From: Patescibacteria group bacterium
GTDB lineage: Bacteria; Patescibacteriota; Patescibacteriia; Veblenbacterales; UBA10138
DNA length: 64,000 nucleotides
Assembly: GCA_041648575.1 (NCBI GenBank)
Contig: JBAZOT010000003.1
Span: forward strand, 14,895-78,894
Direction of reading: 5' to 3'
In this document: piece by piece, positions 5,787 to 61,081 of the stretch
How positions within the stretch are numbered: position 1 is the stretch's first letter
Layout: every line of letters starts with the position of its first letter
Position numbers and translations under genes: made by a program
Notes under the pieces: model-generated
Told to the model about the DNA's origin: nothing
What the model saw: only the letters and a program-made list of their open reading frames with translations
Databases searched by the model: none

Positions 5787-6332
5787 TTAGATCTTTTGAA
5801 TTTGTAAAAAATCCAACTCTACTGGCGTTTCCCGTCCAAACATTGAAACCAATACTTTTACTTTACCCCGACCTTCGTCTACCTCGGATACCTTACCGTC
5901 AAAATCCTTAAAAGGCCCATCACTAATTTTTACTGCCATACCAACAGTCACATCCATTTTATAAGTTGGCTCTTCAATGCCCATTCTTTTTTGCAACGCC
6001 TTCATTTCTTCTTCTGAAACTGGAGTTGGAGTGGTGCCGCTACCAATAAATCCAGTAACATTTGGGGTATTACGCACCACATACCATGAATCATCAGTCA
6101 CCATCATTTCCACTAATACGTATCCTGGAAAAATTTTCTCTTCAACCACTTTACGCTTGCCATTTTTAATGCGAATCTTTTTTTCAGTGGGAATTAAAAT
6201 ATTAAAAATCTTATCACCCATATCCATTGATTCAATACGCTGCTTTAAATTGCGGGTAACATTTTCCTCATAACCAGAATAGGTATGTAGGGCATACCAA
6301 CGTCTACCTTGTTGTATTATCTGTCGCGGCAT
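5787..6332 (-). CDS. nusG: transcription termination/antitermination factor NusG
   Basis: WYALHTYSGYEENV (NGN domain) and KOW motif GMAVKISDGPFKDFDGKV. The ATG at 6330-6332 (MPRQ...) is the likely start. The ORF track adds four residues from a TTG inside the upstream repeat element. Confidence 0.9.
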   Translation of the reverse strand: MPRQIIQQGRRWYALHTYSGYEENVTRNLKQRIESMDMGDKIFNILIPTEKKIRIKNGKRKVVEEKIFPGYVLVEMMVTDDSWYVVRNTPNVTGFIGSGTTPTPVSEEEMKALQKRMGIEEPTYKMDVTVGMAVKISDGPFKDFDGKVSEVDEGRGKVKVLVSMFGRETPVELDFLQIQKI

Positions 6333-6484
6333 ATCCAGTAACAATAACTTGACCTGCTAAAAATTAAGCGAGTCAAAAGTTTATTTAATAGTTAGATCGG
6401 TCTTGTTTAAAAAAGATAACATAGATTAATAGTATAGATAATTTCTATCAGCACGAGCTTAAGTCAAGTTTTGTTACTGGACAT
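6333..6484. repeat. Copy 1 of a ~140-bp TIR-bounded intergenic cassette (copy 2 at 51633-51777)
   Basis: Left end CCAGTAACAATAACTTGACCTGCTAAAAATTAAGCGAGTC, right end GAGCTTAAGTCAAGTTTTGTTACTGGACAT. The termini are inverted repeats of each other (CCAGTAACAAAACTTGAC). About 41 nt on the left and 30 nt on the right are near-identical to copy 2, and the middle is about 70% similar. Confidence 0.8.
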
Positions 6485-6487
6485 AAT

Positions 6488-6676
6488 TTATTTATATAAT
6501 AATTGCTGCAACCCTATATTAAAAATATAATCTAAGGCGCCTAAAAAAATAGCTACCCCCAAAGAAATACCAATCACCAACAAAGTATGTTGGGTAGTTT
6601 CTTTTTTGGTAGGCCAAACAACCCTTTTAAGTTCTTCAATTGATTGTTTAAAATAATTGGTTAATTTATTAGGCAT
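6488..6676 (-). CDS. secE: preprotein translocase subunit SecE
   Basis: 62 aa, single C-terminal TM helix LLVIGISLGVAIFLGALDYIF. Conserved position immediately upstream of nusG. Confidence 0.85.
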   Translation of the reverse strand: MPNKLTNYFKQSIEELKRVVWPTKKETTQHTLLVIGISLGVAIFLGALDYIFNIGLQQLLYK

Positions 6677-6726
6677 AACGATCTTAAAATCAATTATTCA
6701 TTAAAATAAAACCCAGTTTTTAAAGT

Positions 6727-6752
6727 CTTTTAAAAGGCCCCTTGCTGGGCCT
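6727..6752 (-). terminator. Putative rho-independent terminator upstream of secE
   Basis: On the minus strand GGCCCAGCAAGGGGCC followed by UUUUAAAAG. Modest U-tract. Confidence 0.4.
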
Positions 6753-6931
6753 CTATTAAAAAGAATAGCACGAAGTTAAAATGCTGGCAAGTGCCTAAAA
6801 CACTATTGAAAATTAATAAAAAGCCCTAAATACCGTAGTAGTTGGGAGATAGTGGTGAAGATTATTAAGAATTAATGTTTTGTAGAGAAGATGTGCAGAT
6901 GCACAAGGGGCGAGTTTTTTAGTAGGAGTTT

Positions 6932-6979
6932 GGGGATACAATTTAAACCTCTAAGTTATAAAGATTTAAATTGTATCCC
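6932..6979. other. Long perfect hairpin (16-bp stem GGGGATACAATTTAAA / TTTAAATTGTATCCC, 18-nt loop) inside a 570-nt non-coding block
   Basis: Read directly from the sequence. No CDS covers 6677-7247 apart from an implausible 61-aa ORF. Confidence 0.5.
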
Positions 6980-7223
6980 TGTCACCACGCTACCAACCTG
7001 CCTGTTTTTCCTCTTGTTAATCCTTCTCCACCACCATCTATCTTAATTTTACTCCTAAATTAACAATTTGTCAAATCAACCAAATTTGGATTGCGTATAA
7101 CGTATGCGGATATGAGAAGTTGCGAAGCAATTTGGGATGAGACTCTGCAAGAGCCGAGACTCATATCCGCTGTTAGGCGAGGGTGAGCGACCAACGGGAG
7201 CGAAAGTGCAACGCCCCCTTGAG

Positions 7224-7237
7224 TTCAAACCTGAGCC
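7224..7237. repeat. 14-bp inverted repeat, left copy (TTCAAACCTGAGCC), downstream of the SDR gene
   Basis: Exact reverse complement of 8032-8045 (GGCTCAGGTTTGAA). The pair brackets the SDR gene. Confidence 0.6.
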
Positions 7238-7247
7238 GTCCCTCAAT

Positions 7248-7982
7248 TTAGTTTTTAACATTCTTTTGCTTGATTACAATAATTTGTCCAGTAATATGAT
7301 CTGCCTCTTTTGAAGCTAAAAACAAAGTCAAGCTTGCGACATCTTCGGATTGAAGTGCGTTATCTGGTGTAGCATCATCTGGGAAAAATTTTTTGTACGC
7401 TTCAGTTGCTACATCAGAAGGCGAAATGCAATTAACTTGAATTTGATGATTTCTAAGTTCGTGAGAAAGTCCAACCGTTAAATCTTCAATCGCTTTTTTG
7501 GACACGAAATAAGGAAGCCAACCTTTTGCGCCACTCTCGAAAGTTCCTGAAATGTTGATGATTTTACTACCTTGTTTCATTAAGGAAACGAGTTCGTGTG
7601 ATAAAATGGTTGGCGCAGTTAAACCCACTGCGTAAGTATCCAAAATTTCATCGGTTGAATAATCAGCAAATTCAATCCCTGAAAACGCTTTGTCTTTAGA
7701 GTGCCAAATACCAGCAACATTGACGAGAATATCTATTTCGCCTTCTGACTCCTTGATATTTTGAGCAAACTTTTTTATCTCATCAACACTTCTTAAGTCA
7801 ACACAAAAAATTTTTCCTTCGCTACCTGCTTCTTTAACAAGCTCAAGTGTTTTTTCTAAACCATCTTTGGAGCGAGCCAAAAGCATAGTTTTCGCACCTT
7901 CCGAAGCGAGCTTGACGGATATAGCACGACCAATGCCAATACTTGCACCTGTGATGACGGCAATTTTGTTTTTTAGCTTCAT
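7248..7982 (-). CDS. short-chain dehydrogenase/reductase (SDR) family oxidoreductase
   Basis: N-terminal IAVITGASIGIGRAI Rossmann motif. Catalytic Y-x3-K region (LPYFVSKKAIEDL). Confidence 0.85.
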   Translation of the reverse strand: MKLKNKIAVITGASIGIGRAISVKLASEGAKTMLLARSKDGLEKTLELVKEAGSEGKIFCVDLRSVDEIKKFAQNIKESEGEIDILVNVAGIWHSKDKAFSGIEFADYSTDEILDTYAVGLTAPTILSHELVSLMKQGSKIINISGTFESGAKGWLPYFVSKKAIEDLTVGLSHELRNHQIQVNCISPSDVATEAYKKFFPDDATPDNALQSEDVASLTLFLASKEADHITGQIIVIKQKNVKN

Positions 7983-8031
7983 AAAATTATTGTAATCATT
8001 AAGGATTTATAAAACAATCGATAGCTTGATA

Positions 8032-8045
8032 GGCTCAGGTTTGAA
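8032..8045. repeat. 14-bp inverted repeat, right copy, upstream of the SDR gene
   Basis: GGCTCAGGTTTGAA is the reverse complement of 7224-7237. Confidence 0.6.
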
Positions 8046-8149
8046 TTTCGCCTAACTGGTTTATATGTGGAGTAAATGTTTAATATATGCATAAATTTGT
8101 ATGATATGTGGAATAAACTTACAAAATTATTAAATATCTAAATTCTTAA

Positions 8150-8310
8150 CCCACCTCCGCCCTGGCTGCAGGTAAATTTTCCAACCATTTTCTTATTCGC
8201 ACGAATAAGAAAGTAGTAATCCAGGGATAACCACTTAAATACCCAACTTCTTTACCCGCCTCCGCTAAAGCTTCTGGCTTCGCTCTAGCTTAGGCGGACA
8301 ACTCGGTGGG
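8150..8310. other. GC-rich structured non-coding element with competing helices (CCCACCTCCGCC...GGCGGAcaactcGGTGGG; CCGCCT...AGGCGG; CCCTGG...CCAGGG; hairpin TTCTTATTCGcaCGAATAAGAA)
   Basis: GC content far above local background. Long-range complementarity read from the sequence. Lies between the gyrB stop and the SDR start. Confidence 0.4.
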
Positions 8311-8318
8311 CAGGCATT

Positions 8319-10373
<2,055 letters not shown>

Positions 10374-31591: not shown

Positions 31592-31629
31592 TAGTCATTT
31601 TTATGTCTGGCCAGACATAAAAATGACTA
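31592..31629. repeat. Perfect 38-bp palindrome (a): TAGTCATTTTTATGTCTGG|CCAGACATAAAAATGACTA
   Basis: Perfect dyad, read directly. Shares the outer arms CAACTAGTCATTT...AAATGACTA with palindrome (b) at 32712-32749. Confidence 0.85.
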
Positions 31630-32711: not shown

Positions 32712-32749
32712 TAGTCATTTACCCTTTCGCGCGAAAGGGTAAATGACTA
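32712..32749. repeat. Perfect 38-bp palindrome (b): TAGTCATTTACCCTTTCGC|GCGAAAGGGTAAATGACTA
   Basis: Perfect dyad. Inner core ACCCTTTCGCGCGAAAGGGT. Half-copy at 33082-33100 in front of the ArsR gene. Confidence 0.85.
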
Positions 32750-33081: not shown

Positions 33082-33100
33082 TTCGCGCGAAAGGGTAAAT
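33082..33100. promoter_or_regulatory. Half-site TTCGCGCGAAAGGGTAAAT of palindrome (b) overlapping the ArsR promoter region (likely autoregulatory operator)
   Basis: 19/19 identical to the right arm of 32712-32749. Lies 25-45 nt upstream of the arsR-like ATG next to a TATACT -10-like hexamer. Confidence 0.55.
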
Positions 33101-60593: not shown

Positions 60594-60708
60594 CATGAAG
60601 TATATGCTAGCAAATTAATACGCCATGAAGTTGTATAAAGAAGTAAATACTTCTTGGCTCGCCATGAAGTTATGCGAATAAAATGAGCATATACTTCATG
60701 GTGGAGAT
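60594..60708. promoter_or_regulatory. Cluster of CATGAAGT iterons (3 direct, 1 inverted) between the tmRNA 3' end and the GIY-YIG/infC operon
   Basis: GCATGAAGTA at 60595, CGCCATGAAGTT at 60633 and 60661, ACTTCATGGTGG at 60693-60704, overlapping the tmRNA CCA end. Confidence 0.4.
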
Positions 60709-61081
60709 GGCGGGAATTACACCCGCGTCTAAGACAATTAACTTTACCCTTCTACAAACTTAGTCTGATTAATTTTGACAGAAGTCAAATCAGACCAAAG
60801 CCCCTGTCAATCTGTCCTAAGTAATGTCGGCCTAAGCACTAGAACAATACTTAAACCCTGCTCGATAAATGACGCTCTATAAGACTATCGAGATCGTCTA
60901 ATAGAACGGCCTCTGCTTAAATTAAGCAAAAGCTGGTGCTAGTGTCAAAGTGCTAAAAGCAGCTTTGGCGCGAGCTACAAATGATTTGGCATTTGTGAAG
61001 TGTGATGCTTTTATTACGCAGACACATCAACTGCGGTCTGCCAGACAAAGATCACTGCCTTATCGATTGTTAAACATCCCC
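60700..61081 (-). ncRNA. ssrA: tmRNA (SsrA), about 382 nt
   Basis: Minus strand 5'-GGGGAUGUUUAAC... and 3'-...GACGCGGGUGUAAUUCCCGCCAUCUCCACCA. 7-bp acceptor stem with G3.U wobble (AlaRS identity). T-arm GCGGG/UGUAAUU/CCCGC. Encoded CCA. Plausible tag ORF GCC AAA UCA ... GCU UUU GCU UAA (AKSFVARAKAAFSTLTLAPAFA*). Adjacent to smpB. Confidence 0.85.

Follow-up and report, generated by a model that had tools for sequence, protein, structure and literature searches.

A probable integron-type cassette with an internal closing stem behind gyrB in a Patescibacteria genome

In class 1 integrons, in sedentary chromosomal integrons and in clusters of attC sites lacking integron integrases (CALINs), a cassette consists of a promoter-less open reading frame (ORF) and an imperfect palindrome, attC, with RYYYAAC and GTTRRRY core boxes, and its boundaries lie at GTT. 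The IntI-specific domain of the integrase is regarded as essential because it recognises the extrahelical bases of attC. Xer systems provide a second set of comparators, among them XerS/difSL and XerH/difH with their adjacent sites and the CTX phage, which integrates at dif as a single-stranded hairpin. In uncultivated archaeal lineages including DPANN, attC-bounded arrays have been described, most of them CALINs, and different domains have cassettes in common (Ghaly et al. 2022, PMC9668308); in that study IntI calls required the IntI-specific domain, and bacteria of the Candidate Phyla Radiation (CPR) were not covered. We analysed a stretch of 64,000 nucleotides (the window) from a Patescibacteria group bacterium (GCA_041648575.1, contig JBAZOT010000003.1), in which a gene for a short-chain dehydrogenase/reductase (SDR), bracketed by an exact 14-bp inverted repeat, lies between gyrB and secE. 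This interval very probably holds an integron-type cassette, composed of the promoter-less SDR gene and an 84-nt attC-like hairpin, that occupies an attI-like site directly downstream of gyrB in the genome of a CPR bacterium, with the 14-bp repeat serving as an internal closing stem.

The locus resembles integrons in its promoter-less ORF, its imperfect palindrome with both types of core box and its boundaries at GTT. In related loci the likeness extends to arrays of uniform orientation, shuffled cassette order, varied first cassettes at one attI and a divergent recombinase gene, and the cargo is typical (GNAT, RidA, HIT, methyltransferases and small proteins of no assigned function). The window itself has one attC-like site without an integrase within 64 kb, which fits the description of a CALIN or singleton and has many reported counterparts. 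IntegronFinder 2.0 calls CALINs from two sites upward, and singletons can be true sites (PMC9024848).

Anatomy of the cassette and its attC-like site

The cassette spans 955 nt of the minus strand, 8055->7101, starting at G/TTAGGC, and all of its parts described here are read on that strand. Its 5′ boundary, G(8056)/TT(8055), falls in an R′ core box, GTTAGGC (8050..8056), which is the perfect complement of the R″ box, GCCTAAC, of the hairpin at the other end. The 5′ arm of the closing stem (8032..8045) starts at +5 after this box (GTTAGGC-GAAA-arm), and the 3′ arm (7224..7237) lies past the stop codon of the cargo and 45 nt before R″. The cargo is the SDR gene (7248..7982), an ORF of 244 aa with a Pfam adh_short match (E 2e-38). 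A second stem segment pairs TGATTACAATAATTT (7984..7998), just before the ATG, with 7271..7285 within the last SDR codons; these 15 bp are collinear with the outer stem and separated from it by an internal loop of 33 x 33 nt.

In sequence, the arms are the 14-mer TTCAAACCTGAGCC at 7224-7237 of the plus strand and its exact reverse complement at 8032-8045. The end of one arm is 10 nt past the SDR stop and the start of the other 50 nt ahead of the ATG, and the non-coding DNA measures 571 nt toward secE and 336 nt toward gyrB, all of which agrees with an earlier note on this DNA. The two arms are the only copies in the window even when up to two mismatches are allowed, so the 14-mer is not the common tRNA-like motif that the note had considered; ARAGORN finds no tRNA in the whole window.

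A naive pattern scan for attC (AAC-stem-GTT) gave about as many matches in shuffled as in real sequence and was replaced by a covariance model, R1, built from five sites of the comparison loci L004, L005 and L014 and none from the window. R1 makes a single match in the 64 kb, at 7095-7178 of the minus strand (48.1 bits, E 1.1e-9). With its 84 nt and its 11-bp L stem, this site matches what is expected of an attC, an imperfect palindrome of about 57-141 nt able to fold in single-stranded form, and its DNA fold has a z score of -3.5 on the top and -3.4 on the bottom strand. It is made up of R″ (GCCTAAC, 7178..7172), L″ (GCGGATATGAG, 7170..7160), L′ (CTCATATCCGC, 7116..7106), the spacer ATAC and R′ (GTTATAC, 7101..7095). 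Both core boxes, RYYYAAC and GTTRRRY, are thus present, with a T as fifth base of R′ as a slight deviation from RRR, and the 3′ boundary of the cassette, G(7101)/TT, lies in the GTTRRRY box at 7101-7095. The spacers are asymmetric, 1 nt against 4 nt, as is conserved in this attC family, and the L stem has no obvious bulged bases. In comparison with canonical attC, the L box of the family is a near-perfect 11-12-bp helix without clear extrahelical bases, and asymmetry is confined to the spacer (1-2 vs 4-5 nt). The earlier description of the flanks as structured non-coding DNA holds for 7095-7240, where the attC hairpin folds with the z of -3.5, and does not extend to an RNA gene: in 6300-8400 Rfam has no credible match up to E 10, and at gathering threshold it gives only a tmRNA at 60699-61081.

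A further difference from canonical cassettes is an optional GC-rich module of 45 nt on the 5′ side of R″. In the window this module, CTCAAGGGGGCGTTGCACTTTCGCTCCCGTTGGTCGCTCACCCTC (7179..7223), separates the 3′ arm from R″ and forms a side hairpin in the folded junction. About half of the cassettes have modules of ~45 nt (..CTCAAGGGGACGCTGCGCTTTCGCTCC..CTCACCCTC), irrespective of cargo (the window, L005, L014, L047, L050, L060 and L063). One part of the module, GCTCCCGTTGGTCGC, is identical to the loop motif of another attC (L004:1-61).

R1 also recovers arrays in which sites alternate with single ORFs, in contigs labelled CPR as well as DPANN: five sites in L004, six in L063, at least ten in L060, three in L065 and four in L113. 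L004, a groundwater contig, carries four single genes in the same orientation, each followed by an imperfect palindrome of ~100-145 nt. These palindromes start with RYYYAAC (AGCTAAC, GCCTAAC, GTATAAC), contain an 11-12-bp stem and a variable loop with a conserved motif, and end in ...AAAC-GTTRRRY. A scan of viral contigs with an attC loop motif gave 16 chance matches, none of them confirmed by R1.

Insertion site and mobility of the cassette

A comparison of the secE-gyrB interval in relatives, as proposed in the earlier note, reveals both an empty and a differently occupied site. In L094, whose GyrB is 83% identical, the order is pheS-pheT-gyrB-secE-nusG-rplK-rplA-dcd, with 110 nt from gyrB to secE and no insert. 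The ~115 nt before secE in the window (6677-6795) match the L094 spacer, and therefore ~1.5 kb (6796-8318) have been inserted; for annotation this means that the 1.5 kb between gyrB and secE are an insertion and not a native regulatory RNA. The ancestral spacer (6677..6795, minus strand) consists of a hairpin, GGCCCAGCAAGGGGCC, with a T run and then the secE leader, and was aligned by eye to 8031-8141 of L094. In L093, the closest relative (GyrB 91%), the same attI-like element directly follows gyrB (82% over 91 nt), and a different gene stands past the junction. Since one site has different first cassettes in the window and in L093, it behaves as an attI would. In the window the element (8057..8129, minus strand) has direct repeats (T/C)TCCACATAT at 8113..8104 and 8072..8063, and its core, ATATAAACCA, abuts the crossover G. 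The core resembles the attI that adjoins recombinase genes in L047 and L112-L125; in the window the element follows gyrB and not a recombinase gene.

The cassette has also changed context. SDR genes 76-92% identical in amino acid sequence to that of the window occupy unrelated neighbourhoods in other genomes: behind another cassette's attC in L004, behind unrelated sequence in L005, after tRNA-Ala in L014, and after fusA and a small ORF in L013, a metagenome-assembled genome of Peregrinibacteria. Together with the empty site of L094, this bears out the earlier view of the SDR gene as cargo of a small inserted cassette. The copies (window, L004, L005, L013, L014) always diverge from their upstream neighbours from the GTT box; L004 and L005 contain an identical SDR unit behind different sequences, with the divergence exactly at GTTAAGC. 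Nucleotide homology with the window spans from ~8057-8061 to 7220 or 7150, past both arms. The boundaries thus lie 10 nt beyond the 5′ arm, at the GTTRRRY box 8056-8050, and ~125 nt beyond the 3′ arm, through the attC-like hairpin, at the GTTRRRY box 7101-7095, and the repeats are not the cassette boundaries for which they had been taken.

Crossover would take place at about G/TT, at 8056/8055 and 7101/7100. The expected junction of the excised circle is ...CCGCATACG/TTAGGCGAAATTC (also given as ...CTCATATCCGCATACG/TTAGGCGAAATTCAAACC), and that of the empty site would be ...AAACCAG/TTATACGC (also given as ...CACATATAAACCAG/TTATACGCAATCC).

Several other SDR loci show different states. The SDR cassette beside tRNA-Ala in L014 (10001-10488) has a ~245-nt internal deletion between the short direct repeats TTGAATTT / TTGCATTT and, with its two arms and its attC retained, represents a cassette in decay. 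In L008/L009 the SDR has 76% nucleotide identity, a shortened stem and no R1 attC. In L002 (5152-6900, GCA_054040455.1), genes for RidA, SDR and GNAT proteins are separated by three direct repeats of 170 nt that do not fold (z +1.3), have no R1 match, contain promoter-like hexamers and have an attI-like core end, ..GGATAATAACTA/GTTGTGC; these repeats may be a different kind of cassette junction. A 68% identical SDR (P0017; L128:10001-10735) is packed tightly between a NUDIX gene and a tRNA synthetase gene, with spacers of 26 and 13 nt, on a 1.08-Mb contig of archaeal type (TBP, Rpb4, thermosome). It lacks cassette features, which suggests a possible native source of the cargo.

The closing stem and competing explanations

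Pairing between the two ends is a property of the cassette family as a whole. We compared the first 70 nt after R′ with the last 90 nt before R″ in 23 cassettes and obtained a mean local score of 30.8 for cognate ends, against 15.5 (sd 3.7) for non-cognate ends; 17 of the 23 cassettes surpassed the 95th percentile of the non-cognate scores. In 16 of 22 cassettes the first base of the 5′ arm is +5. Between the end of the 3′ arm and R″ there are 4 nt in seven cassettes and ~44-56 nt, which include the GC-rich module, in most others. Arms are 14-50 nt long across the family and can reach into the last codons. By inspection, two cassettes from a class 1 integron, dfrA1 and aadA1, have no complementarity past the R box, so that the closing stem looks like a feature of this attC subfamily, with one classical integron compared.

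At least 12 loci, belonging to different organisms, have conserved arms that covary. Within SDR clade A, an A-T pair of the window (TTCAAACC/GGTTTGAA) corresponds to G-C in L004, L013 and L014 (TTCAAGCC/GGCTTGAA). Clade B (~35% amino acid identity), found in records labelled Paceibacterota, Pacearchaeota, Nanoarchaeia and others, shows an exchange of T-A to C-G (..GCCCGAGCC/GGCTCGGGC..). In clade C (32%) the pair is another one, 16 bp long and perfect (TTCAAAAACCCGCCTT/AAGGCGGGTTTTTGAA), with only a TTCAA/TTGAA end in common. Judging by these compensatory changes across SDR clades that are 32-36% identical, the outer pairing is under selection.

The circular junction folds as one continuous hairpin, in which the arms, the R box (TCGCCTAAC/GTTAGGCGA) and the L box follow one another, with a DNA folding energy of ~-43 kcal/mol compared to ~-30 kcal/mol for the integrated form. 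Excision and circularisation would bring both arms beside the R box and lengthen the attC hairpin by 14 bp, and by 15 bp more past the internal loop. The closing stem would then act on single-stranded DNA, stabilising the folded recombination site of the free cassette, and in a cassette that is still integrated it would bring the two crossover points close to each other. In both ways it would help a trans-acting recombinase to capture and excise the cassette; this recombinase is likely to be a 270-aa Xer-like enzyme found divergent from arrays in relatives. On this model, pairing of the cassette ends is predicted to control folding and excision.

Inverted repeats are also enriched inside the cassettes. 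The longest exact inverted repeat in end-trimmed, mostly coding cassette bodies has a mean z of 3.8 against shuffles in 21 cassettes, compared to 0.43 in 23 housekeeping genes of the window (Mann-Whitney p 3e-6) and 0.47 in 42 genes that lie outside the cassettes on contigs bearing them (p 5e-7). Cassettes with such body repeats, exact and 12-16 nt long, are found in L004, L005, L060, L063, L065 and the window (7179-8049), and in several of them, including the SDR cassette of the window (7382-7396/7803-7817 and 7414-7427/7735-7748), they have a nested, collinear order. They may have come from selection for a rod-like fold of the single strand or from templated mutation within hairpins. We also considered the SDR gene as a decayed long palindrome or a duplicated and inverted gene and rejected this, as a global alignment of the two halves reaches a z of only ~3.8, which comes from a few exact blocks.

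Four other accounts of the 14-bp repeat have to be set against a closing stem. A single exact pair could well have arisen by chance in AT-rich DNA, and here the earlier statement that chance is unlikely needs correction: dinucleotide-shuffled windows hold 2.55 ± 1.5 exact inverted pairs of at least 14 nt within 1.2 kb. In the real window, however, four of the 11 such pairs are nested in one interval of 822 nt (7224/8045, 7271/7998, 7382/7817 and 7414/7748), where ~0.03 would be expected. With the covariation and the excess of cognate over non-cognate pairing added, chance is refuted and its probability practically nil. A short exact inverted repeat around a single gene also recalls the ends of an insertion sequence, the terminal repeats of a transposon or miniature inverted-repeat transposable element, or the sites of an invertase that flips the SDR gene, the last of these being the invertible cassette that the earlier note had envisaged. 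We regard this explanation as highly improbable, because homology and context junctions pass both arms to the GTT boxes, so that the repeats do not stand at the ends of the unit; no target-site duplication is seen, the window encodes no transposase, invertase or tyrosine recombinase and contains no further copy of the 14-mer, and in all of the ~15 loci the arms have one and the same orientation relative to the gene and attC.

The stem might instead act in the mRNA, where pairing of the 5′ with the 3′ untranslated region, and of the bases ahead of the ATG with the last codons, would circularise the transcript and protect it from exonucleases or tune translation. Both arms do lie in untranslated regions of the transcribed strand, a fold of the mRNA strand over 7200-8070 uses these helices (z -3.7 vs shuffles), the second stem covers the translation-initiation region, and the decayed stem of L002 retains several G.U-compatible pairs. 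Against this, the 81 non-Watson-Crick positions in 20 cassette stems comprise 11 G.T, 15 A.C and 55 others, as expected at random, so that there is neither a wobble excess nor, from the G.T and A.C counts, a strand asymmetry; perfect Watson-Crick blocks reach 31 nt, which is unusual for conserved RNA helices. The lack of wobble excess and the perfect blocks fit pairing in DNA better than in RNA. Moreover, the stem takes its register from the R boxes, starting at +5 after R′ and ending 4 nt before R″, and not from the start and stop codons, and a role in mRNA is, overall, unlikely. Finally, the repeats could be functionless products of template switching in a hairpin (quasi-palindrome correction), which would copy one arm onto the other and act within the coding region as well. 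The enrichment of exact 12-16-nt repeats in cassette coding regions and their nested, collinear arrangement speak for such a process, as do the absence of the inner SDR repeats from L008 and their partial disruption in L013. The outer stem, however, has a fixed register relative to the R boxes and is kept by compensatory changes across clades, which requires long-term selection on pairing, and as an account of the outer stem template switching is improbable. It could make the inner repeats and yet leave the outer stem functional, and is therefore not exclusive of a closing stem.

Candidate recombinase and wider setting

In L047, a search with IntI1 from the class 1 integron control L111 finds a 270-aa Xer-like tyrosine recombinase (421-1233) that is encoded divergently from an SDR clade B cassette, 120 nt away. 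It passes the cut-off of NCBIfam NF040815 ('site-specific tyrosine recombinase/integron integrase', XerA type) with 232 bits against 220, is 36% identical to IntI1 and keeps all catalytic residues. Homologues are abundant in CPR. Three independent contexts (L047, L112-L121 and L122-L127; e.g. L114:6001-6813) have the recombinase gene divergent from attC arrays. In the latter two sets the gene is followed divergently by a conserved site of ~115 nt ending ...CGTATAAAAACGA/GTT; past this site come variable genes, with R1-type attC sites on the opposite strand. A single attI in one population is joined to three different first cassettes (L112, L113 and L114-118), and two of these cassettes also occur in the L060 array. 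An integrase was sought near the large arrays of L014 and L060, and none was found there. Smyshlyaev et al. (2021, PMC8138268) describe a 'Cand' group of Xer-related recombinases of candidate phyla, for which a Xer role was assumed, and the 270-aa recombinase may belong to this group. The library that we searched contained no paper on integrons in CPR or on an integrase of this kind.

From these features the 270-aa enzyme emerges as a candidate non-canonical integron integrase of CPR. It resembles Xer systems in being a short Xer-like tyrosine recombinase encoded beside a presumed core site, and its substrates are probably folded single-stranded hairpins; it differs from them in that its sites carry integron-type R″/R′ boxes and build multi-cassette arrays. 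The difference from canonical integrons is that the recombinase linked to this family has no IntI-specific domain, so that it would also fail the IntI filter used for archaeal integrons, with which the present family would share the exchange of cassettes across domains. SDR clade B cassettes (L037, L022, L050, L047, L060 and L065) have 81-91% protein identity across records labelled Pacearchaeota/Nanoarchaeia and Paceibacterota, and share the same arms and GC-rich module across these domain labels. This suggests a recent cross-domain transfer of the cassette, or else mis-binning. The contigs of L014, L047 and L065 are titled Gammaproteobacteria or Pseudomonadales, yet are AT-rich with CPR-like cassettes, and look mis-binned or mislabelled.

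Several observations weigh against an integron-type cassette at this locus. No tyrosine recombinase is encoded in the 64-kb window (Pfam, tblastn), which also leaves present-day mobility in this genome unproven, and the window holds a single attC and not a tandem array, the upstream site not being an attC. R1 scores the canonical class 1 attC sites of dfrA1 and aadA1 only at E ~1-3; R1-type sites would thus be at best a distant subfamily of canonical attC. The recombinase of the relatives stays below the cut-off of TIGR02249 (integron integrase) with 220 bits against 265, and in the alignment it lacks 25 + 11 residues of the IntI1-specific domain. The four bases after GTT vary among SDR cassette copies (AGGC, AAGC, ATAC), and therefore the exact position of the crossover is not pinned down. 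L002 and L008 contain SDR genes with decayed arms and without R1-type attC. The role of the stem in DNA, the strand used and the identity of the recombinase are, finally, points that we infer, the function of the stem from anatomy only. Strict membership among integrons thus fails on the integrase, and the mode of working would, as far as can be read from the sequence, be that of an integron.

A broader proposal, to which we would give a little less than an even chance, is that CPR bacteria and DPANN archaea (by record labels) share a distinct class of integron. This class would combine a compact 270-aa Xer-like integrase without the IntI-specific domain with cassettes that have closing stems and nested body repeats, and the SDR cassette of the window would be a singleton mobilised in trans. 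Stems and nested repeats would fold the whole single-stranded cassette into a rod and juxtapose its crossover sites, and current integron finders would miss the integrase, so that the arrays would be reported as integrase-less; many such attC clusters in metagenome-assembled genomes might then have an unrecognised integrase. If correct, the proposal would show how genome-streamlined CPR bacteria and DPANN archaea swap single genes, apparently across domains. It would also challenge the definition of integron integrases, with textbook cassette turnover beside a recombinase without the IntI domain, and with an attC that differs in step with it, having a near-perfect L helix and an extended basal stem.

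The remaining parts of the interval, like its housekeeping neighbours, are encoded on the minus strand. Upstream, gyrB (8319..10364; ORF, Pfam) ends where the insertion begins, directly past its stop codon. Between this stop and the attI-like element lie an extra 190 nt (8130..8318; direct repeats D1/D3) that are absent from L093 and L094. They contain two degenerate copies of the gyrB 3′ end, GCGGAGGCGGGTAAAGAAGTTGGGTATTTAA at 8265..8235 and GGCGGAGGTGGGTTAAGAATTTAGATATTTAA at 8160..8130, 105 nt apart; L093 has a single gyrB end directly before the attI-like element. The stretch 8130-8318 looks like two small insertions, each of which regenerated the gyrB end. Downstream of the cassette, an inserted segment without ORFs (6796..7100) begins with TTATAC, is absent from L094 and has no match in any fetched locus. 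It holds a near-consensus promoter-like site, TTGACA-17-TAAAAT (7074..7046, minus strand), and a 21-bp hairpin (6933-6979), and could represent a degenerate cassette without an ORF that gives secE(-nusG) a promoter again, or else a small RNA. The downstream neighbour secE (6488..6676; ORF, Pfam) follows the ancestral spacer.

Elsewhere in the window, the tmRNA gene (60699-61081, minus strand; Rfam RF00023, 97.5 bits) adjoins smpB. Two perfect palindromes at 31592-31629 and 32712-32749 have common outer arms, CTAGTCATTT...AAATGACTAG, and one of them follows a gene of the HTH_5 (ArsR) type, whose promoter region contains a 19-nt half-copy of the second palindrome (33082-33100). These elements probably serve as operators or terminators in a small regulon.

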